Below the pieces are notes generated by a model, which saw only the letters and a list, made by a program, of their open reading frames with translations, searched no databases and was not told the DNA's origin. The translations under genes were made by a program, and so were the position numbers. Below are positions 290 to 26,296 of a stretch of 26,296 nt of DNA, one piece after another (positions within the stretch are counted from its first letter, which is position 1; every line of letters begins with the position of its first letter). The stretch spans positions 1 to 26,296 of IMG/VR virus record IMGVR_UViG_3300026224_000020; one strand, written 5' to 3'. The stretch is from a virus (lineage: Duplodnaviria > Heunggongvirae > Uroviricota > Caudoviricetes).

Positions 290-667
290 TTATTGATTTT
301 TTCTGTGTTGCGGCCTGAACAAGCTACTGATAAACAAAAAACATAATGCGCCCAGCGCACACCAGAAGACGGCACTCAACAACCACGCCAGCTCCTGCCA
401 GAATGAGCGTGATGGTGAAAAAAACAGACGCATAATTAACATAGAACACGGTGCTGCCAGCATTGCGCCAAACAGTGGTTTAAGGACTTCTCTACGCCGC
501 GAAAAAAAGCTGGCTACAGCCCCAGGAAGAATGAAAAACAGTAAGCCGATTTCAGGGTGCCCGGCAGCCCGAAAAGCTCCCTTCATATGTGTCGCCAGAA
601 AAAGGCACACCACAATAAAGAGGACAAAACAGCAAATTGCCCCCGCCCAATGTTGTTTATGTTTCAC
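290..667 (-). CDS. ybjM: inner membrane protein YbjM
   Basis: 125-aa strongly hydrophobic ORF, same length as E. coli YbjM (from memory) and in the conserved position between grxA and ybjL. Confidence 0.8.
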   Translation of the reverse strand: MKHKQHWAGAICCFVLFIVVCLFLATHMKGAFRAAGHPEIGLLFFILPGAVASFFSRRREVLKPLFGAMLAAPCSMLIMRLFFSPSRSFWQELAWLLSAVFWCALGALCFLFISSLFRPQHRKNQ

Positions 668-935
668 ATGTTCCTCCTGACACTGCCTCTATCGAACACA
701 TTTTTCGCCGGTGTGGCGCTCAGTAAGATAAAGCCGCTTCGCATTCCATGCTAATATAGGCCAACACAATTCTTATAGCCGTTGGTATCTAATGTGATTA
801 CACTAGTAAAATATATTGTTACTTTACTATTGATTAAGTGCGCTGAATGAATCTGCGCTCTGAATTCAGGTAAAAACATTATCTTAAATTACCATTTCTT
901 TCAACAGCTTACTCGTAAACAAGAAGTTAGTCTCC

Positions 936-2621
936 GTGAATATAAACGTCGCCGAATTGTTAAATGGGAATTACATTCTGTTATTATTCGTGGTCCTCGC
1001 GCTTGGACTATGTCTCGGAAAATTACGACTTGGTTCAATCCAACTGGGTAATTCCATTGGCGTTTTAGTCGTATCACTGTTATTAGGTCAACAACATTTC
1101 AGTATTAACACCGACGCGCTTAATCTTGGCTTTATGCTGTTTATTTTCTGCGTCGGGGTCGAAGCCGGACCCAACTTTTTTTCCATTTTTTTCCGCGATG
1201 GGAAAAATTACCTAATGTTAGCCCTGGTAATGGTCGGTAGTGCACTGCTGATCGCCTTAGGACTGGGTAAGTTGTTTGGCTGGGACATCGGCCTGACGGC
1301 CGGTATGTTGGCTGGTTCAATGACATCAACACCGGTTTTGGTTGGTGCGGGCGATACCTTACGCCACTCAGGAATAGAAAGCGGGCAGCTCTCTGCGGCA
1401 CTGGATAATTTAAGCCTCGGGTATGCATTAACCTATTTGATTGGCCTGGTGAGTTTGATTGTCGGTGCGCGTTACTTGCCTAAGTTGCAGCATCAGGACT
1501 TACAAACCAGCGCCCAACAAATCGCTCGTGAACGGGGTCTGGATACCGACGCCAGCCGTAAAGTCTATCTGCCGGTCATTCGCGCCTACCGCGTCGGGCC
1601 GGAACTGGTCGCCTGGGCCGATGGCAAAAACTTGCGCGAACTGGGTATTTATCGACAAACCGGTTGCTACATTGAACGTATTCGTCGTAACGGGATTCTG
1701 GCAAATCCGGATGGTGACGCCGTGCTACAGATGGGCGATGAAATAGCGTTGGTAGGATATCCCGACGCCCACGCCCGACTCGATCCCAGCTTCCGTAACG
1801 GTAAAGAAGTTTTTGATCGAGATCTTCTCGACATGCGTATCGTCACTGAAGAGGTGGTCGTCAAAAACCATAACGCTGTCGGTAAACGCCTGGCACAACT
1901 GAAGCTGACCGATCACGGTTGTTTCCTTAACCGCGTCATCCGCAGCCAGATCGAAATGCCGATCGACGATAACGTGGTGCTTAATAAAGGCGATGTATTG
2001 CAGGTGAGCGGCGATGCCCGTCGCGTGAAAACCATCGCCGATCGCATCGGCTTTATCTCGATTCACAGCCAGGTTACCGATCTACTGGCATTCTGCGCGT
2101 TCTTTGTCATCGGTCTGATGATCGGGATGATCACCTTCCAGTTCAGCACATTCAGCTTCGGCATGGGTAACGCCGCCGGATTGTTATTCGCTGGTATTAT
2201 GCTGGGCTTTATGCGAGCGAACCACCCGACCTTCGGCTATATTCCCCAGGGCGCGTTAAGCATGGTGAAAGAGTTCGGTTTGATGGTATTTATGGCGGGC
2301 GTGGGTTTAAGCGCCGGTAGTGGCATCAATAACGGCCTGGGTGCGATTGGCGGTCAGATGTTGATTGCCGGGTTAATTGTCAGCCTGGTGCCCGTTGTTA
2401 TTTGCTTCCTGTTTGGCGCTTATGTGCTGCGCATGAACCGCGCGCTGTTATTCGGTGCAATGATGGGCGCACGTACTTGTGCTCCGGCAATGGAGATCAT
2501 CAGCGACACTGCGCGCAGCAACATCCCGGCCTTAGGTTATGCGGGCACTTATGCAATAGCTAACGTACTGCTGACGCTGGCAGGGACAATCATCGTAATG
2601 GTATGGCCAGGACTCGGATAA
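936..2621 (+). CDS. ybjL: putative AAE-family transporter YbjL (two membrane domains flanking paired RCK_C/TrkA-C-like soluble domains)
   Basis: 561-aa ORF with hydrophobic N- and C-terminal halves and a central soluble region; length and synteny (ybjL-ybjM-grxA) match E. coli YbjL as recalled. Confidence 0.88.
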
Positions 2622-2856: not shown

Positions 2857-3075
2857 TCAAAGAGAGAGCGCCACCTGTCCTGATTTCATTGGATGCGGCT
2901 GAACCGGATTTGACTCTTTTGGCGTTGCAATCGAACGAACAAAAGTTTCATGGGTAACAAAAGTATGGCTGCAGTTAATGTTCTGGCACTGGTTGTAACG
3001 CTCTTTGGTCAATGAAGATACCTGAAAACTGCTGCGAGTATGGGCGGCACTTCCACACAGTGGGCAAATCATCAT
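2857..3075 (-). CDS. ogr: late gene transcriptional activator Ogr (zinc-finger)
   Basis: CPLCG...C..C..C zinc-finger pattern (MMICPLCGSAAHTRSS...YNQCQNINCSHTF) typical of P2 Ogr/Delta; start placed at the internal Met giving 72 aa (P2 Ogr size from memory); the track ORF extends to 3108. Confidence 0.82.
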   Translation of the reverse strand: MMICPLCGSAAHTRSSFQVSSLTKERYNQCQNINCSHTFVTHETFVRSIATPKESNPVQPHPMKSGQVALSL

Positions 3076-3165: not shown

Positions 3166-4266
3166 TCATTCCATTTCGAAATCATCAATCCTCACTTCAA
3201 GCTCCAGACTGGTCGTAAAACCGTTATCCGGGCTGACGGTATGCGTCAGAGTCGTAATGGTCCATTCCGCATCATCTATCGGCTGTTTAAAACCACTGAC
3301 CTTCACAGGCATTTCCGTGTAGAGATCTGCCCGCCCTTCTGCCAGTTGTAGCGAAAATGACGCAACGCCGCGTTGCAGGCGTTCCCACTGCATTTTCGCC
3401 GCTCGTTCGGCGTTGCTCCGGTTGGCATAAGTGCGATTAAGTACCAGCACGTTTTCATCCGTACCCACCAGGTAATCGCCCTGCTTCGCTTCTGGCTCTT
3501 TCTTCTGCTTCTTAGTTCTGCGCTTACGCTTCACCGTGGTGCTTTCTTTCTTCGCAGGTTCGCGGGTATGCAACCAGCTGGCAATTACGCCCGTGTAGGC
3601 TCCGCGATCTGCCAGGGTAAATCGGTGACTGTCGCCGTCCTTGCGTGTGATAGTGATCACTGGCAGAGGTTTACCAGTGGCGCTTTTGCCCTGCCCCTGC
3701 CGGATGAATAACAGATTGCCATTTTTCACCGACGCGATGGCACCGTACTGTCGCGCCAGCCGCATCAGAAAACTGCCGTCACTCTCATTAGTCTGGTCTA
3801 TATGCTCCACGGGCTTATCCGACAGGTCTTTACCCAGTGCCATCTTCAGCTTGTGCCGCGCGGCTATTTCCTTCACCACTTCCCCGACGGTGGTCTTATG
3901 CCACGATTTTTCACGGCGGGTATTCAGCGCTTCCCGAAAATCAGCACTTCGCGCCCGGATAGTCAGGCGGTCCGGTGCGCCAGTGTGTTCAATCTCGTCC
4001 ACCGTGAATGTCCCTTTCGGGAAAAGCGGCTGCCCCTTCCAGCCCAGCGCCAGCGTAATGACCGCACCACGGCGCGGCAGCACGATTTTTCCGTCGGCGT
4101 CGTCCAGCTCCAGATCAAGCTGGTCCGCGTCAAAGCCCCGATTGTCCGTCAACGTCAGACTCATCAGACGGTTATCCAGCACAGTAGTGATATCCCTGCC
4201 CTCAATACTGATGCTGAATGCGGGAGTTTTGTTGCCTTTGTTAAGCAGTTCAGAGCTGAAATTCAC
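3166..4266 (-). CDS. D: tail protein D (late control gene D family)
   Basis: 366-aa ORF in the P2 gpD position; lysine-rich central stretch (KRKRRTKKQKKEPEAK) and overall similarity to gpD as recalled; overlaps U by 4 nt. Confidence 0.85.
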   Translation of the reverse strand: MNFSSELLNKGNKTPAFSISIEGRDITTVLDNRLMSLTLTDNRGFDADQLDLELDDADGKIVLPRRGAVITLALGWKGQPLFPKGTFTVDEIEHTGAPDRLTIRARSADFREALNTRREKSWHKTTVGEVVKEIAARHKLKMALGKDLSDKPVEHIDQTNESDGSFLMRLARQYGAIASVKNGNLLFIRQGQGKSATGKPLPVITITRKDGDSHRFTLADRGAYTGVIASWLHTREPAKKESTTVKRKRRTKKQKKEPEAKQGDYLVGTDENVLVLNRTYANRSNAERAAKMQWERLQRGVASFSLQLAEGRADLYTEMPVKVSGFKQPIDDAEWTITTLTHTVSPDNGFTTSLELEVRIDDFEME

Positions 4267-4748: not shown

Positions 4749-7700
4749 GCGTCGTATCCCCCCTGATCGCTGTAGTTACTCCTGGCTTTTGCCTTCAGCC
4801 TGCGTTCACGTTCATCAAGCTGGCGTGCCACCTCCCGCGCAATATCCTGCGCACTTTGTCCTGGCTGCGTCTGGATGATGATCTGCGTCGGTGCCTCAAT
4901 CCGGTGAACGGGCGGCACAGCAGCTGCGCGACTCACCATCGCTTCACCGCCTTTCGCGGGAAGTGCCAAAGGATGCAACGGTGGAAGCTCTGCTGGCGCG
5001 GCAGCAACGCCCATCATTCCGGCGACAACCGCAGCCAGTGCAGCGGTATTTCTCCGGCTGGTCACGTTTGCCGGACCGTTGACAATTTCCGGCCCGTTTT
5101 CACCGACAATGCCGAACTGCCCGCGCGGGATATACCCGCCGCTGTCATACATCCCCGCAAAGCCATATCCCCATGACGGAAAACCACCCGATGGCATTAT
5201 CACTTTACCGTCTGCATTCACCGTCGCAGGTTGCTGACGCGTCACGCTTTCCGGCAGTTTCGCTTTTGCAGCCTCTTTACTGACAATGCCGAGTTTCTCC
5301 AGCAACCAGGAAACGCCGGATTTCAGGGAGTCCAGCGGATGCATGACCATATTCAGCCCTTCCGCCAGTGCCTCTCCGAATCGCCGCCCCATTGCCGCTG
5401 CACTCTGCAGTTCGGCAGAGGTCGACTTAACGGGCGTCAGCAGATCAGTAAACCAGCCCCACAGCGCCTGTACTTTGTCGCCAATCCACTGAAACACAGG
5501 CTTAAGTGGTTCGAATGCTGCACTGATGGGACCTGCCGCCGCTTTGAATCCTTCCACCACACCAGCGAGAAATGCGGTGATGGGTTGCCAGTATTTCCAG
5601 ACAACCAGCGCCACGCCCGCCAGTGCAGTAACCACAAGACCTATCGGACTGAGCAGAGCACCTAACAGACCAGATATGGCATACAGGGCAACGCGCAGCA
5701 TCGCCAGCGGACCGGATGCCAGTACTCGCAGCACCGCGCCTGCGGCAGCCAGTCCACCGCGTAGTGCTGCCAGTGGATTCATAAACATCACAGCAACAGC
5801 ACGTAAACCGGATAATCCAGACCGCAACAGTGCAACCGGCACACCTGCTACAGTTTTCAGGACATTCCCCGTCAGTGATGCCGTGCGGCGCAAAGACGAC
5901 AACGGCGCAGTAAGTAAACCCGCTGCGTTGCCCGATGAAGCAAGCCCGCGTCGCAGCAGTGCCAGTGGAGTGCCAGCTAACCAGGACAACGCGCTGCTGG
6001 TTCGTGTTACTGCTGCCGTAACGGAAGGTAACGTTTTGATACCCAGCACAGAGAATCCCAGACGGATGACTGCCAGCGGCCCCAGCACTGCAGCCAGCGC
6101 CACCGCTAAGGTGCCGAGGCCTAGGGTAACCGCAGCCACAACAGCCGCTACTTTCATCAGTGTGCCTATCAGTTCCGGGTTAGCTTCCACCCAGCGGCGC
6201 AACGCCCCCGTGATGCTTTTCACCGTGTACAGAATATCCATCAGCGGCTGGCGCAGCGTTTCGCCCAGGCTGCTGAAGGTATTCTGTGCAGTGGTTTTGA
6301 CCAGCAACCACTGCGCAGAAAGTGAATCCTTGTTAATGTCGGATTCTTTCTGCATGGAGCCGAGCGCATCATTGCCCGCTGTCAGTTTTAGCTGGCGCTG
6401 TAGTTCCGGCAGGTTGTTTGCCAGTTTCGCCGCGTCATCGCCAAACTCTTTACCAAACAACATAGTCATGGCAGACAGACGCTTGTCCTGCGGCAGTGCG
6501 TTCACCTTCTCCAGCACACGCTGGATAGTTCCCATCGCATCCTTCGTCATCTGCTTTTCAATCACTTCAGGATTGAGTTTCAGCAGATTCATCCCTTCAA
6601 AGAAACTCTTGCTCTGCATGGTGGCAATGGACAATTCACGCACCATCGCGTTTGCTGCACTGGCTGCAACCTCCGGCGCAGCGCCCAGTGTCAGGAAGGT
6701 GGAACCCAGCGCCGCCGCTTTACGATAATCCAGACGGTCAGCCACACCGCCCAGGCGTTGCATCACATCAATGATGTCCGCCCCTTTCGACATGGCGTTA
6801 TCATCCAGATAGTTCAGCGCATCACCGAGCTGTTCAATATTGCGGGTAGGGATTTTGTAGAGCTGAGCGATTTTCCCCAGACTTTCTGACAGTTCATCCG
6901 CTGGCAGCTCAAAGGCTGTTGCCGCCTTTGCTGCTGTGCTGGCGAAGGCCAGCAGGTCACGTTTCTGGTCTTCCCAGCTGTCGTCAGGGTTTGCGACGTT
7001 CATGCGCGCCCCACCTTCAACCAGTGCGGCGAAGTCCACCGCACCGTTTTCCATCGGCAGCTGTTCGCTGGCAGCCTTGATGGCATCCTGCATTTCATAA
7101 AAACGTGCAGTACGGTTTCCATTATCGTCACGCAGACCATTGACCTGCTTTGCCACACCTTTCATGGCATCTTCCATGCTGGTATAGCTTTTTACTGCCG
7201 CCATCACTGGCGTCCCCATTGCCAGCCCTGCAGCCGTGGTAGTGGCTCCGGCTCCTGCAATACGATCGCGCACCTCCAGCGAACGGGCATAACTGGCACG
7301 CGCCGCATTCATCCTGCGCTGAGCTTCACCCAGTCGCTTCAGCCGCGCCTCCTGTTTCGACAATTCCTGGTTATAACGTGATGTTTCACGGGCTAAACGG
7401 GCAGTTGCTCCCGCATCATCTTTCGCAGAAATTCCCGCCCGGTACAGTTCTGCACGCACAAGCGCCGTTTGCTTCTGCAAATATTTTTGTTGTTCTTCCA
7501 GGCGTTGGACTGCCAGCGTTTGCCGACCTAAAGCCACAAGGTGCCGTTGTGATGGTTGTTCCATCGCCTCCAGCTCAGAGCTAAGCAAATTAGCCTTCTG
7601 TCTGGCATAGTTCAGCCTGTCGCCTAACTTCTTGTTATCGGCCTGCAGCTTGCGAAATTTTTCCAGGCTGTTACCCGCCTGATTGAGTTGCTTTAATGCG

Positions 7701-8830: not shown

Positions 8831-10003
8831 TTACGCGCTGACCTGGCTGGCAAAATTCACCAGGTACTGATCGGTGATGCGCTGGCGCAGCATCAGATTT
8901 TCAAGTGGCGGCACTGGCGTGTAGTCATAGTCGATGGTGAGTTTTCCGGCTTTCAGCGTGTCTTTGTCGTTCACCGACTCATCCAGCCAGCAATCACCAC
9001 CAATGAGATAGCCTTGACTGACCAGGCTGCGCATTTTGGCGCGGATACCTTCGATAATGTCGCGGGCCAGCGACGGGTTAAGCGGTTTATCCACCGCCCA
9101 CATGTGTGCTTCTGCCATCGTGTCCATCAGCACCTGCGCCGTGCGGGTGTAGTTTTCGAAGGCAAAGAGCGGGTCATCACTCAGGCAGCGGGAACCCCAG
9201 AAGCGGAAACCGTCTTTACGCACAAGTGTGGTGACGTCGTTCTGGTTCAGCAGACCTGCATCGGTTGCCGGGTCCTGCAGATCCCAGAACACATCTGCAG
9301 AAATTCCGGTGACACCGTTCACGCCCACGTTGGACAGGCTTTTGTGCCACCCGGTCTGCTCATCAATTTTGGCACGCAGACCAAGCGCACGGGCGGTGGC
9401 ATATGCCGTTGCTTCGGCATTCAGCACCGTGTCCCAGCCAGTAAAGTCAGGCCAGATCAGCATTCCTTCGCGCTGGCTGAAATTTTCACGGTAAGTGATC
9501 GCCTCCTGTACCGTCTTGCAGCCATACGCTGACAGGTAGGCAAACCCACGCAGGCTTTGCGCCACACTCAGCAACTCAGTAGCAACGGCTTTGTTATCGT
9601 GACCTGGCACGCCGAGAATGCGCGGTTTAACGCCGAGCTGTGTCTGGGCAGATAACAGGGCTTTCATGCCTGTTTTTTTACCTTCAGCAGTCACTGCGCC
9701 GATGATATTGGTCGTGGTTTCTTCTTCCGTTTCACCCTGCGGCACACGCACAACAACGGTCACGGGTTTTGCCTGGTCAGCGATGGCATCCAGCGAACGG
9801 GCCAGCGTGCCGGACTCACCCGCTTTACCGCTGGCAGTCAGCACGTCAGTGATCAGTACAGGTTTATTAAGAGGAAACATTTTTGCATCGGCATCATCGC
9901 CCGTGCAGACCATACCCACGATGGCGGTGCTCACCGTGGTAATGGATCGGGTGCCTTCGTTGACTTCAACAACGCGCACCCCGTGGTGGTAATCCTGAGC
10001 CAT
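8831..10003 (-). CDS. FI: contractile tail sheath protein FI
   Basis: 390-aa ORF immediately upstream of FII; size and position match P2 FI. Confidence 0.88.
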
Positions 10004-10231: not shown

Positions 10232-11242
10232 TTAAATATTTTGATTCTGATAAGCCTGCGTTATTCTTTTCATAAGCTTATGTCTGAACGATTCCAAGGG
10301 AGATTCAATGCAATGATAGGCAATAGCCCCACCGCCAATACATAAAGCTATAGTAACTAAGTATGCAGTAACATTATCCAAAAATTTAGGATAAACAATA
10401 AAAATTATCATTATATGAAACAAATAAATTGAAAAACTATATTTCCCCAAATCCGCCATGATTTTTGAAGATAAAACCGCGCTTACATACCCACTGGAAT
10501 TTACTTGCAGATATACAAAGAGAGCAATAAATGGCCCCAATACCACAAATTTATTACCCAGCCAACCATTAGCCCCCTGAAAAGGAGGGGTCAACATTAT
10601 AAATATTAATATAATCGCAATTGACACCCCATCACTAACGAGAGATGATATTTTAATTTGAAAATAGTTATACATAAACGCAATTATAATTCCATACATA
10701 AAAACAGGAATGTAATACGGTAGCCTACCGTTGATTTCGTCATCCGTATAAGGGTATATAAAAGCGAACGCTAAGGTTAACAATATCAAAAACAACAAAG
10801 AATATTTTCTACCTGCAACTTTCTGGATACTAGATGCGAGATAAACCACAATCGGCAACAAAAAGTAAAACTTGAATTCTATCGGAATAGTCCAGAGATG
10901 GATGTAAGTACTATCAAATGAAATTATCGATTTCATTTTCTCTAAATCATAAAATCCCATAAGGTAATAAATTAATACTGCAATATAAAAAATCGGTAAT
11001 ATCCTTATTGTTCGCCCTAAAAGATAACTCAACACATTCAAAAACGAAAAACCAGAATTAATAAATTTATGTGTCAACAAAAAGGCGCTAAGAACAAAAA
11101 ACAACCAAACACCGGGCTGCCCCGTACCTCCGAGATGATCATGAAGTGAGGGAAAGAATAGTCCCGTAGAATGCATCACCACAACAATCATCAAAGCGAA
11201 ACCTCTCACGCCATCGGCAGAACGTATTTTATTCTCTTTCAT
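10232..11242 (-). CDS. acyltransferase family 3 membrane protein (putative O-antigen/surface polysaccharide O-acetyltransferase), prophage cargo
   Basis: Polytopic hydrophobic protein whose N-terminus (MKENKIRSADGVRGFALMIVVVMHS) fits the acyltransferase-3 R-x10-H signature; start placed at the internal Met (track ORF runs to 11320); visibly AT-rich, in the Z/fun moron slot. Confidence 0.8.
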   Translation of the reverse strand: MKENKIRSADGVRGFALMIVVVMHSTGLFFPSLHDHLGGTGQPGVWLFFVLSAFLLTHKFINSGFSFLNVLSYLLGRTIRILPIFYIAVLIYYLMGFYDLEKMKSIISFDSTYIHLWTIPIEFKFYFLLPIVVYLASSIQKVAGRKYSLLFLILLTLAFAFIYPYTDDEINGRLPYYIPVFMYGIIIAFMYNYFQIKISSLVSDGVSIAIILIFIMLTPPFQGANGWLGNKFVVLGPFIALFVYLQVNSSGYVSAVLSSKIMADLGKYSFSIYLFHIMIIFIVYPKFLDNVTAYLVTIALCIGGGAIAYHCIESPLESFRHKLMKRITQAYQNQNI

Positions 11243-11369
11243 ATTGATTTTTTTATTAAAAAACGGGAATCTAATATTATCACAGAAACAGACAACAAAC
11301 AGCCTCCCCCTCGTATTCATACCATATAGGCAGTGTGGGGGAGGATGATACTAACCATTTAATTCTCAG

Positions 11370-21835: not shown

Positions 21836-23602
21836 ATGAACACCACACTGACACCCGCAGATCTCGATCCCCGTCGGCAGGCCATGCTGCTGTACTTTCA
21901 GGGATACCGCGTAGCCCGCATTGCTGAAATGCTGGGCGAGAAAGTTGCAACCGTTCACAGCTGGAAAAAACGCGACAAGTGGGGTGACTATGGGCCGCTG
22001 GATCAGATGCAGCTCACCACCGCCGCACGCTACTGCCAGCTCATTATGAAGGAGCACAAAGAAGGGAAAGATTTCAAAGAGATTGACCTGCTGGCGCGCC
22101 AGTCGGAGCGCCATGCGCGGATCGGCAAGTTTAACAATGGCGGCAACGAAGCCGACTTAAACCCTAACGTCGCCAACCGCAACAAAGGCCCGCGCCGTCA
22201 GCCGGAAAAGAACGTTTTCACCGATGAACAGATTGAGAAGCTGGAAGAAATCTTCCATTCCTCCATGTTCAACTACCAGCGCCACTGGTGGGAAGCCGGA
22301 AAAACCAACCGCATCCGCAACCTGCTGAAGTCACGCCAGATCGGCGCGACCTTCTATTTTGCCCGTGAAGCCCTGATTGACGCCCTGCTAACCGGGCGTA
22401 ACCAGATTTTCCTTTCCGCCAGCAAGGCTCAGGCCCACGTCTTTAAGCAGTACATCATCGACTTCGCCAAAGAAGTGGAGGTGGAGCTGAAAGGCGATCC
22501 GATGGTGCTTCCTAACGGGGCCACGCTGTACTTCCTCGGCACCAATGCCCGCACGGCCCAGAGTTACCACGGCAACCTGTATCTGGATGAATATTTCTGG
22601 ATACCGAAATTCCAGGAGCTGCGCAAAGTGGCTTCCGGTATGGCTATTCACAAAAAATGGCGACAAACCTATTTTTCCACGCCATCCAGCCTGACACACA
22701 GTGCTTATCCGTTCTGGTCCGGTGCGCTGTTCAACCGAGGGCGCAACAAAGCCGATAAGGTGGACATCGACCTGTCCCACAGCAATCTGGCCCCCGGCCT
22801 GCTGTGCGCAGACGGGCAGTACCGCCAGATAGTCACTGTGGAAGATGCGGTGCGCGGCGGCTGTAACCTGTTCGACCTCGACCAGTTGCGCATGGAGTAC
22901 AGCCCGGACGAATACCAGAACCTGCTGATGTGTGAGTTCGTGGACGATCTCGCGTCTGTGTTCCCACTCAGCGAGCTGCAGGCGTGCATGGTGGACAGTT
23001 GGGAAGTCTGGACCGACTTTCATGCACTGGCCCTGCGCCCGTTTGGCTGGCGCGAAGTGTGGATCGGATATGACCCGGCGAAAGGTACGCAGAACGGCGA
23101 CAGCGCCGGATGCGTGGTGGTGGCGCCGCCAGCCGTGCCGGGCGGTAAGTTCCGCATTCTTGAGCGTCACCAGTGGCGCGGAATGGACTTCCGCGCCCAG
23201 GCTGACGCCATCAAAAAACTGACCGAACAGTACAACGTGACCTATATCGGTATCGACTCAACCGGCGTTGGTCACGGGGTTTACGAGAACGTGAAAGCGT
23301 TTTTTCCTGCCGTCCGGGAGTTTGTCTACAACCCCAACGTTAAAAACGCCCTGGTACTCAAGGCCTACGACATTATCAGCCACCGCCGTCTGGAGTTTGA
23401 CGCCGGACACACCGACATAGCGCAGTCCTTTATGGCAATCCGTCGAGCCACCACCGCCAGTGGCAACCGCCCGACCTATGAAGCCAGCCGCAGCGAAGAA
23501 GCCAGCCACGCCGATCTGGCCTGGGCAACGATGCACGCACTGTTTAACGAACCGCTGCAGGGCGAATCCGCCAATACCAGCAATATTGTGGAGATTTTTT
23601 GA
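21836..23602 (+). CDS. P: terminase large (ATPase) subunit P
   Basis: 588-aa ORF divergent from O; size and position match P2 gpP. Confidence 0.9.
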   Translation: MNTTLTPADLDPRRQAMLLYFQGYRVARIAEMLGEKVATVHSWKKRDKWGDYGPLDQMQLTTAARYCQLIMKEHKEGKDFKEIDLLARQSERHARIGKFNNGGNEADLNPNVANRNKGPRRQPEKNVFTDEQIEKLEEIFHSSMFNYQRHWWEAGKTNRIRNLLKSRQIGATFYFAREALIDALLTGRNQIFLSASKAQAHVFKQYIIDFAKEVEVELKGDPMVLPNGATLYFLGTNARTAQSYHGNLYLDEYFWIPKFQELRKVASGMAIHKKWRQTYFSTPSSLTHSAYPFWSGALFNRGRNKADKVDIDLSHSNLAPGLLCADGQYRQIVTVEDAVRGGCNLFDLDQLRMEYSPDEYQNLLMCEFVDDLASVFPLSELQACMVDSWEVWTDFHALALRPFGWREVWIGYDPAKGTQNGDSAGCVVVAPPAVPGGKFRILERHQWRGMDFRAQADAIKKLTEQYNVTYIGIDSTGVGHGVYENVKAFFPAVREFVYNPNVKNALVLKAYDIISHRRLEFDAGHTDIAQSFMAIRRATTASGNRPTYEASRSEEASHADLAWATMHALFNEPLQGESANTSNIVEIF

Positions 23603-24636
23603 TGGGAAAGAGTAAGAAGAACCGCGCTGCGGCGACGAAACAGATCCAGCTTAAAAGTCAAACTACAGCCGAAGCATTCAGCTTCGGCGATCCCGTTCCT
23701 GTTCTGGACCGCCGAGAACTGCTGGATTATGTGGAATGCGTACAGATGGACCGCTGGTATGAGCCGCCCGTCAGCTTTGACGGACTGGCGCGCACCTTCC
23801 GCGCTGCCGTTCATCATAGTTCCCCGATTGCAGTAAAGTGCAACATTCTGACCAGCACCTACATCCCTCACCCGCTGCTCAGCCAGCAGGCTTTTTCGCG
23901 TTTTGTGCAGGACTATCTGGTATTTGGTAACGCCTACCTGGAGAAACGCACGAACCGCTTCGGTGAAGTTATCGCCCTTGAACCTGCCTTGGCAAAATAC
24001 ACCCGACGCGGGTTAGACCTGGATACCTACTGGTTTGTGCAATACGGTATGACCACGCAGCCATATCAGTTCACGAAAGGCAGCATCTTTCATCTGATGG
24101 AACCGGACATCAACCAGGAGATCTACGGCCTGCCCGGTTATCTTTCTGCTATTCCATCCGCCCTGCTCAACGAGTCTGCCACGCTGTTCCGCCGCAAGTA
24201 TTACATTAACGGCAGTCATGCAGGCTTCATCATGTATATGACCGACGCCGCGCAGAACCAGGAAGATGTGAACAACCTCCGCAACGCGATGAAAAGCGCC
24301 AAAGGCCCTGGCAACTTCCGCAACCTGTTTATGTACTCGCCTAACGGCAAAAAGGACGGGCTTCAGATCATCCCGTTGTCAGAAGTCGCAGCGAAAGATG
24401 AATTTCTGAACATCAAGAACGTGAGCCGAGACGACATGATGGCTGCACACCGCGTACCGCCTCAGATGATGGGAATTTTGCCGAATAATGTTGGGGGGTT
24501 TGGGGATGTGGAGAAGGCAAGTCGGGTATTTGTTCGTAATGAATTAATACCTTTGCAAAAACGTTTCGAAGAATTAAATTTATGGCTAAAAAATAATATT
24601 ATTACATTCAAAGAATATCAACTATCCCTAGACTAA
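23599..24636 (+). CDS. Q: portal protein Q (3' end AT-rich, apparently mosaic)
   Basis: 345-aa ORF overlapping the P stop; size matches P2 gpQ; the last roughly 30 codons are visibly AT-rich, unlike the rest of the gene. Confidence 0.88.
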   Translation: MMGKSKKNRAAATKQIQLKSQTTAEAFSFGDPVPVLDRRELLDYVECVQMDRWYEPPVSFDGLARTFRAAVHHSSPIAVKCNILTSTYIPHPLLSQQAFSRFVQDYLVFGNAYLEKRTNRFGEVIALEPALAKYTRRGLDLDTYWFVQYGMTTQPYQFTKGSIFHLMEPDINQEIYGLPGYLSAIPSALLNESATLFRRKYYINGSHAGFIMYMTDAAQNQEDVNNLRNAMKSAKGPGNFRNLFMYSPNGKKDGLQIIPLSEVAAKDEFLNIKNVSRDDMMAAHRVPPQMMGILPNNVGGFGDVEKASRVFVRNELIPLQKRFEELNLWLKNNIITFKEYQLSLD

Positions 24637-24640
24637 TTAA

Positions 24641-24663
24641 TAACCACCTCTATGAGGTGGTTA
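24641..24663. terminator. perfect hairpin between convergent Q and cargo gene (possible bidirectional terminator)
   Basis: TAACCACCTC-tat-GAGGTGGTTA, 10-bp perfect stem with 3-nt loop; only weak T-rich tracts flank it. Confidence 0.4.
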
Positions 24664-24683: not shown

Positions 24684-26093
24684 TTACTCATCTACTCTGA
24701 TTTTTTGTTTTTTATTATTTTGAGTTAAGACATTTATGGTAATAGATGTATACGGATGAAAGTCAGGCACTATACTTTTAACCTCTCCATTTTCAAGAAA
24801 ATGATGTGCTATTGAAGGAAATAAATCAGGATCTACAGGATATTTAGCATTAGGATTATGATACATATTTAAACCTTCTGCCCATGTTTCTGTAATATCG
24901 CCTTCTTTCACTTCAAAACTAAATGCTGCTGGATATAATGCCTCTGGGTCATGATCATGGCAGTAACCACTCCTAAATAATCTAAGGTCACTTCTTCCAA
25001 AACCAGCCAGTTTTCCCATCCGATTAAACTTCGATATAGTACCACTATTAGAACTAAGGACGGCCGAAATATTTTCAGACTCATCCAAGAAGAAAAAGCC
25101 TGAAGGAATTTCCTTTTTCTCAAATTGATGCGATATAATTTTCTTAGTTGCTAAACTGTAACATCCATCTTCAGATTTAACATGCTCATAGCGAATACCA
25201 TAAAGATACTGCCAAAGTGCACTATGGGACCAAATCATAGAGTTTGGTTCATGAAAATCAGCAATTGCGAAAATTAAAGGATTCCCCTTAACATGTTCTA
25301 GATCCCAGTATCGAGTTTTCTTTTTCAGTTTAGAATAGAGAGAACTTCCAAATTTAATCGGCATATAATTCTCTATTTTCTCTAGCAATTCTTCCTTACT
25401 TTTAGGTTCAGATAGCATTTCAGATGATTGATTAATATCATTCCCTGTTGGATTAACCGTTACAGCTTCAATGCAAATAGTATTACCATACTTACGTGCC
25501 ACATAATCAGGGGCATTAAACTGCCTATCTAGCCAAAAGTGTTCCTCTCGTAAATATGCGAAAAGATATAACTCCCATAGCCGGGCATCAAAACCTGTTG
25601 TCTGAAACTGCTCTATAAAATTCCCGTCGACATCCTCAAAATGATTCATCATTTCCTTGATTATCCCTGTTGCAGGCGACCAGTTCGCGTATTTACCAAA
25701 TAATGAAAAATGATGATGAAGTTTATCTAGTGTAACTATAGGTGTGAATAAATCCATTGCTTTATAAGTTTCATCACCTTGTGGAAATACTTTTACGTTT
25801 AATTTAGTATGCTTCCGCATTAATTTCTTTAGTTTTGCTCGTGCAGAATTCATTTCTGAAACACTAGTAAATAGGTCAATACATCTATATCTCCCACTTA
25901 AGTCTCTTGCTAAAACAATACCGCTATAATCTTCATCGATTTGATCCAATAATAGTGCCCCTAGCAGGAACTCTCTCGGACTACAGTACCACTCAAACTC
26001 ATAACCTAAAAGTTCAGTATTTGGCATTCTGGTCCAATCAACAAAAGCATTAAACCTCTCTTTACTCATTTTTTTTATATCAAGAAAAGACAT
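24684..26093 (-). CDS. hypothetical 469-aa protein, AT-rich cargo in the P2 tin/old variable slot; candidate single-gene anti-phage defense or exclusion protein
   Basis: Long uninterrupted ORF in AT-rich DNA where stops are frequent; GAGGT RBS about 8 nt upstream of the ATG at 26093; no Walker A or other motif I can confidently recognise; convergent with Q. Confidence 0.82.
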   Translation of the reverse strand: MSFLDIKKMSKERFNAFVDWTRMPNTELLGYEFEWYCSPREFLLGALLLDQIDEDYSGIVLARDLSGRYRCIDLFTSVSEMNSARAKLKKLMRKHTKLNVKVFPQGDETYKAMDLFTPIVTLDKLHHHFSLFGKYANWSPATGIIKEMMNHFEDVDGNFIEQFQTTGFDARLWELYLFAYLREEHFWLDRQFNAPDYVARKYGNTICIEAVTVNPTGNDINQSSEMLSEPKSKEELLEKIENYMPIKFGSSLYSKLKKKTRYWDLEHVKGNPLIFAIADFHEPNSMIWSHSALWQYLYGIRYEHVKSEDGCYSLATKKIISHQFEKKEIPSGFFFLDESENISAVLSSNSGTISKFNRMGKLAGFGRSDLRLFRSGYCHDHDPEALYPAAFSFEVKEGDITETWAEGLNMYHNPNAKYPVDPDLFPSIAHHFLENGEVKSIVPDFHPYTSITINVLTQNNKKQKIRVDE

Positions 26094-26171
26094 CTTTCTA
26101 CCTCATCACGAAAAAATATTTTTTCCTAAAAAGACTTAAGTTAGCTTAATCTATTGATAAAAAAAAGCTAA

Positions 26172-26296
26172 GGAAGGTGCGAACAAGTTCCTGATATGAG
26201 ATCATCATATTCATCCGGAGCGCATCCCAGAGGGACATCATGAGCCATCAACTCACCTTCGCCGATAGTGAATTCAGCACTAAGCGCCGTCAGACC
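26172..26296 (+). mobile_element. IS5-like insertion sequence, left end (continues beyond window)
   Basis: Terminal inverted repeat GGAAGGTGCGAACAAG at 26172 preceded by CTAA (IS5 YTAR target); following sequence closely resembles the IS5 left end as recalled. Confidence 0.8.
26240..26296 (+). CDS. insH: IS5-family transposase, N-terminal fragment (truncated by window end)
   Basis: ATG at 26240; translation MSHQLTFADSEFSTKRRQT matches the IS5 InsH N-terminus (MSHQLTFADSEFSSKRRQT as recalled). Confidence 0.8.
   Translation, partial: MSHQLTFADSEFSTKRRQT

Follow-up and report, generated by a model that had tools for sequence, protein, structure and literature searches.

An open reading frame (ORF) of 469 codons on the minus strand of the window (the whole stretch of viral DNA analyzed here, 26,296 nucleotides [nt] in length) was assigned by sequence similarity to the PD-T7-1 family, of which the predicted product is a clear member, and not to a new family. 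The product is probably a single-gene anti-phage protein that protects the lysogen, encoded by AT-rich cargo in the hotspot between genes A and Q (the A-Q hotspot) and acting as a metal-dependent PD-(D/E)xK nuclease. The gene and its ribosome-binding site are located as follows.

24684 to 26093, minus strand: PD-T7-1-family defense gene, with an ATG start, encoding 469 amino acids (coordinates include the stop codon)
26101 to 26104, minus strand: Shine-Dalgarno sequence GAGG, 7 nt 5' of the ATG, read directly from the sequence

The initial annotation of the window had described this ORF as uninterrupted and AT rich, with a good ribosome-binding site and a product lacking a Walker A motif, and each of these observations was reproduced. 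The GC content of the ORF was 0.349, compared to 0.541 in the rest of the prophage (window positions 3000 to 24500), and at the base composition of the ORF, a run of 469 codons would escape a stop by chance with a probability of approximately 2e-17. The GAGG sequence is listed above, and no Walker A motif was found in the 469-amino-acid protein. The protein is full length relative to the family and has exactly the sequence of RefSeq entry WP_000008838.1, which is annotated as a hypothetical protein. The 90%-identity cluster around it in the protein collection contained 206 members, and the PD-T7-1 protein of Escherichia coli ECOR46 (RCQ85672.1) was not among the members listed for that cluster. 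The gene was present in only 25 of 5426 complete E. coli genomes.

Searches against Pfam and PADLOC, which the initial annotation had proposed as a check, gave no match in Pfam and an end-to-end match to PD-T7-1 in PADLOC. Residues 7 to 457 aligned with positions 2 to 449 of the 452 positions in the PD-T7-1 profile (PDLC04073; E = 3.5e-196, 650 bits), a score comparable to those of other clear members (651 bits for P0071 and 658 bits for P0135). The PD-T7-5 profile (PDLC04110) was matched at only 189 bits (E = 3e-56), over residues 113 to 436; PD-T7-5 was therefore not the best match, and the protein does not have the core-only architecture, since an extra N-terminal domain is present. PHROG 8571, a family of unknown function, was matched over residues 108 to 465 (E = 2e-151). 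A match in NCBIfam was set aside as meaningless (11 bits), and the name "glycosaminoglycan attachment protein," which some relatives bear at NCBI, was disregarded as uninformative. A word-indexed search returned >3600 relatives of the window protein, and when 1.84 billion cluster representatives were scanned in full with an HMM, 3035 passed E ≤ 1e-3 and 706 passed E ≤ 1e-30. Relatives in the phage collection were at most 36% identical.

The initial annotation had proposed a lysogen-protecting defense factor, possibly of an undescribed family. The absence of a Pfam match and the RefSeq label "hypothetical protein" are compatible with a previously undescribed single-gene defense family, but the full-length PADLOC match, the match to PHROG 8571, and the earlier publication of PD-T7-1 make that reading almost certainly wrong. 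The functional part of the proposal fared better: by homology to a validated family, the protein very probably shields the lysogen from other phages. Only the novelty of the family was lost, because PD-T7-1 had already been described and validated.

PD-T7-1 is one of 21 systems obtained by functional selection of E. coli genomic libraries (Vassallo et al. 2022, Nat Microbiol, PMC9519451). Its source was E. coli ECOR46, in which it consists of one gene (RCQ85672.1, ~449 amino acids) labeled "Nuclease" with weak HHpred support (Hjc at 80% probability, with PDDEXK_5 and RmuC lower) (PMC9519451). The ECOR46 system gave stronger protection against T-even phages than against T7 (PMC9519451), and published work on family members reports protection against both glucosyl-hmC T-even phages and T7. 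The P2-like hotspot and the presence of PD-T7-1 homologues in prophages and defense islands have also been reported (PMC9519451). PD-T7-1 of NILS69, when expressed in K-12, protects against a Teseptimavirus and shrinks T7 plaques; this activity comes from the K-12 expression assay, and for the native host, a heading credits only the restriction-modification (R-M) system and PD-T4-3 with lower phage virulence (PMC12409345). No report on the substrate, trigger, mechanism, or structure of PD-T7-1 was found in the literature searched. Neither the family nor the location is new, since PADLOC and models of the DefenseFinder type already recognize the gene, and the mechanism of PD-T7-1 is what keeps the locus of interest. 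Possible guides to that mechanism include a confident model with a variant PD-(D/E)xK site and a short list of invariant residues, a small accessory domain whose presence and placement vary among relatives, and a position first after cos.

The gene adjoins portal gene Q and converges with it, as the initial annotation had stated, and a hairpin is located in the spacer between them.

23599 to 24636, plus strand: portal gene Q (Pfam Phage_portal), 61% identical to P2 Q
24641 to 24663, no strand assigned: hairpin with a 10-bp stem and a 3-nt loop, in the 47-nt spacer that separates the stop codons of the convergent Q and defense genes

The hairpin (ΔG of -16.4 kcal/mol; z = -4.09 versus shuffled sequences) is probably a bidirectional terminator; lacking a T-run, it was not called by a consensus terminator scan. 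The final ~80 nt of Q (24556 to 24636) had a GC content of 0.23 and still encode a C terminus that aligns with that of P2 Q. Because this AT-rich end remains Q-like coding sequence, the cargo boundary lies inside Q, which suggests that cargo modules are swapped through recombination inside the terminal part of that gene.

The 19-mer of the P2/186 cos site was not found in the window. In intact relatives, the cos 19-mer GGCGTGGCGGGGATACGAG, with P2-like flanks, is located 98 nt upstream of the defense gene ATG, between the end of the early operon (a DinI-like gene) and the defense gene, at the following positions.

9593 to 9611 of locus L001 (E. coli UPEC132): cos 19-mer
5884 to 5902 of locus L010: cos 19-mer
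4198 to 4216 of locus L011: cos 19-mer

Given this spacing in the intact relatives and the absence of the 19-mer here, cos of the window prophage is placed beyond the IS5-family element that interrupts the upstream region (see below). With cos upstream of the gene, the cargo is flanked by cos and Q, and this gene would come first in the packaged DNA, counted from the left end. The old and tin genes of P2 occupy the A side of cos, and 187 nt separate the end of Q from cosL. The initial annotation had placed the gene in the "P2 tin/old slot," which is correct as to the A-Q hotspot but not as to the side of cos, since the gene is on the Q side, unlike P2 tin and old. Cargo on the Q side here and on the other side in P2 indicates that the A-Q hotspot has two compartments flanking cos. 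L010 (5033 to 5710) and L011 (3347 to 4024) contain an extra gene of 225 amino acids between the DinI-like gene and cos, in the true tin/old position. This gene had no Pfam or PADLOC match and could be a second cargo gene of the A-Q hotspot.

A nuclease-like fold (described below) encoded 98 nt from cos in intact relatives could also belong to a phage DNA-processing factor, such as a recombination nuclease or a cos/packaging accessory nuclease, specified by the first gene after cos. This explanation is highly improbable. P2, in which cos and Q are 187 nt apart, does not carry the gene, nor do most P2-like prophages (it was present in only 25 of 5426 genomes), and its composition is foreign to the prophage. 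Homologues also occur outside phages, beside R-M genes, and in P4-like satellites, and a member of the family was isolated by selection for phage resistance (PMC9519451).

The genomic setting was instead in agreement with mobile defense cargo. The left end of the window is chromosomal, with ybjM and a ybjL-type permease gene, and the remainder is a P2/186-like late region, including gene D and genes for the tail tube and sheath, tail fiber, lysis, capsid, terminase P, and portal Q. The ybjM and permease (Asp-Al_Ex plus TrkA_C) genes (window positions 290 to 2621) flank the end of the prophage, which puts the site of integration close to ybjL. Among complete genomes, the closest was that of E. 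coli UPEC132 (L001); there, the defense gene is located between Q and the DinI-like gene, followed by replication gene A, with a 186-type CI/CII/Fil early region beyond gene A. Homologues were found in the same slot of 186-like prophages, in a P4-like satellite (Klebsiella), beside a type I R-M system (Burkholderia), and on a small island (Pseudomonas). The neighbors differed completely between these places, and no neighbor gene was common to the E. coli, Klebsiella, Burkholderia, and Pseudomonas settings, which fits a one-gene system on mobile or defense DNA. No second ORF was found between IS5 or cos and Q. Assignment of the gene as horizontally acquired AT-rich cargo of a P2/186-like prophage, resident in the A-Q hotspot, is supported.

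Two further genes outside the A-Q hotspot were observed. A 362-amino-acid Acyl_transf_3 gene with a GC content of 0.32 to 0.40 is located at window positions 10232 to 11320 (minus strand), between FI (tail sheath) and G (tail-fiber assembly). This site is the P2 Z/fun slot, the second P2 defense hotspot of Vassallo et al. The gene had no match in PADLOC and could mediate lysogenic conversion of the O-antigen acetyltransferase type, blocking phage adsorption. In the UPEC132 prophage, beyond CI and outside the window, a DUF4041-domain gene (L001, 16734 to 17573) adjoins the CI repressor gene. DUF4041 is also a domain of PD-lambda-1 (Vassallo et al., PMC9519451), so the UPEC132 prophage may carry another defense gene at a third site.

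The region upstream of the defense gene is interrupted by an insertion sequence.

26172 to 26296, plus strand: left end of an IS5-family element, comprising its terminal inverted repeat (GGAAGGTGCGAACAAG) and the first part of the transposase gene, which reads away from the defense gene

The junction (26171/26172, with a TTAG target at 26168 to 26171) is 78 nt upstream of the defense gene ATG. Matches to complete E. coli genomes end at this junction, and plasmid matches were annotated as IS5-like transposase. The intact relative L001 has cos-flanking DNA where the window has IS5, and the insertion point corresponds to a position ~20 nt from the cos 19-mer in intact relatives. An identical junction was present in locus L012 and three similar assemblies and in none of the 25 complete genomes carrying the gene. 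The insertion may alter or abolish expression of the defense gene and, being so close to the position of cos, may alter packaging of the prophage.

It is rather unlikely that the gene is silent or deregulated in this strain through loss of its native control region to IS5, perhaps with prophage packaging crippled as well. The place of the junction, 78 nt ahead of the ATG and at a point 20 nt away from the cos 19-mer in intact relatives, is consistent with such an effect, and a promoter scan detected no consensus (sigma-70-like) promoter in the remaining 78 nt, with overall counts not above those of shuffled sequence. However, the ORF is uninterrupted and has the same sequence as the allele in IS5-free prophages, and recurrence of the same junction in L012 and three similar places indicates that the insertion is stably inherited. 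The promoter of P2 old starts only ~45 nt upstream of old, so a promoter within the 78 nt is possible. Insertions of IS5 upstream of genes can activate as well as silence them, for example at bgl and flhDC. The insertion in the window represents a natural test of how expression of the defense gene is controlled.

An alignment of 60 homologues that were 46 to 76% identical to the window protein was the basis of an AlphaFold model (pLDDT of 88.6, pTM of 0.89) and of the assessment of residue invariance. Three regions were distinguished.

25758 to 26093, minus strand: N-terminal small alpha+beta domain (amino acids 1 to 112), with helices, a four-stranded meander, and a long helix
25194 to 25643, minus strand: central PD-(D/E)xK-like nuclease core (amino acids ~151 to 300)
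24687 to 25193, minus strand: C-terminal beta-rich region (amino acids 301 to 469), present in every family architecture seen

The fold of the central core is nuclease-like, and its similarity to PD-(D/E)xK enzymes is at the level of the fold. In the model, the core elements follow the order alpha (168 to 183), beta, beta (197 to 201), beta (204 to 213), alpha (233 to 256), and beta (273 to 279). Residues E174, P195, D196, E209, A210, K255, D279, and H281 of the core were invariant in the 60 homologues, and V211, which was nearly invariant, occupies the position of the canonical lysine. The motifs flagged in the initial annotation were all present (PDYV...IEAV at 195 to 211, ADFHE at 278 to 282, and CHDHD at 378 to 382), and the PD-(D/E)xK-like pattern that it had tentatively suggested proved to be the PD...E of the conserved nuclease-like core. 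Within these motifs, P195, D196, and E209, as well as D279 and H281, and H381 of CHDHD, were invariant. The C-terminal region (~170 residues) was also conserved, with invariant residues including K355, R358, R374, H381, E402, and E406.

Alignment of the family profile with archaeal Hjc (PDB 1hh1) in hhalign paired D42, E55, and K57 of Hjc with D196, E209, and V211, at a probability of only 2.6%. On this pairing, the putative metal-binding acidic residues are present and the canonical lysine is a conserved valine. The Foldseek comparison proposed in the initial annotation yielded a 44-residue local match to Hjc and otherwise nothing significant, with no PDB entry at E ≤ 0.001. A match to gramicidin synthetase in a profile search of PDB sequences was rejected as due to chance.

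Most likely, the protein acts without partners, as a metal-dependent nuclease, in protecting the lysogen. The central domain would be a metal-dependent nuclease with a PD-(D/E)xK (restriction endonuclease-like) fold, in which E174, D196, and E209 would bind metal. Because V211 replaces the canonical lysine, K255 or the pair D279/H281 probably completes the active site. Upon infection, its target would be the nucleic acid of the phage or possibly that of both phage and host, and the N-terminal domain of ~100 residues and the conserved C-terminal region would control when, or on what, the nuclease acts. The nuclease activity, its substrate and trigger, and the roles of the flanking domains are inferred.

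The N-terminal domain appears to be a movable unit. Residues 1 to 112 were predicted to fold alone (pLDDT of 88.6), and three architectures were found among relatives: the small domain followed by the core, the core only, and the core with the same small domain at the C terminus. The last was represented by P0159 (residues 361 to 461, hhalign probability of 99.3%) and P0171 (residues 384 to 469, 96.9%). PD-T7-1 was the best model for all three architectures. The domain is regarded as an autonomous accessory module with a regulatory or sensing role, and one candidate considered for its fold was the WGR domain. A further relative, P0165, has a C-terminal TPR array (about residues 480 to 630) instead of the small domain.

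A protein of the same family could act by abortive infection, in which a phage cue frees the nuclease, host and phage nucleic acid (DNA or tRNA) is degraded, and the cell is killed or arrested. This is possible but doubtful, because direct immunity was found for 7 of the 11 systems that have DNase-like components (PMC9519451), and the gene has no antitoxin-like neighbor and is stably present in many genomes. A further, speculative and rather unlikely, proposal is that the nuclease, unaccompanied by a methyltransferase and with a PD-(D/E)xK site devoid of the lysine, would discriminate phage from self in a new manner and be gated by the small movable domain. If true, it would represent a new sensing principle for single-protein "direct" defense nucleases.

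The preferred assignment, to a PD-T7-1-family nuclease that protects the lysogen, was compared with known systems. P2 Old and Tin are likewise AT-rich, lysogen-protecting cargo of the variable region between genes A and Q. P2 Old, however, is an OLD-family ATPase/Toprim nuclease, whereas neither Pfam nor PADLOC matched the window protein to OLD or Tin and the protein lacks a Walker A motif, and the P2 pair is located on the A side of cos, whereas the window gene is between cos and Q. Other single-protein PD-(D/E)xK defense systems (Shedu, PD-T4-8, and Gao_Upx) differ in domain architecture and gave no PADLOC match even at E ≤ 10. Similarity to PD-(D/E)xK nucleases, such as archaeal Hjc, the CdiA-CT EC869 DNase, and the catalytic domains of restriction enzymes, is seen in the "PD" that opens beta-2 and the acidic residue on beta-3. 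The window protein differs from these nucleases in having a valine instead of the (D/E)xK lysine, a core contained within a 469-amino-acid protein with two further conserved regions, and sequence similarity below the significance threshold.

PD-T7-5 (E. coli UMB0934, RRM82777.1, PMC9519451) is also a single gene labeled "Nuclease," with a homologous nuclease core and C-terminal region. It represents a more distant branch (189 versus 650 bits) and lacks the N-terminal domain of ~110 residues. PD-T7-1 of ECOR46, to which the window gene was likened through the family profile, is similarly a single gene whose product has, at the corresponding place, a weak signature of PD-(D/E)xK enzymes, and the match to that profile is full length. 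The two differ in length (469 versus ~449 amino acids), so the window protein is not the same allele, and in the IS5-family element that lies upstream of the gene here.
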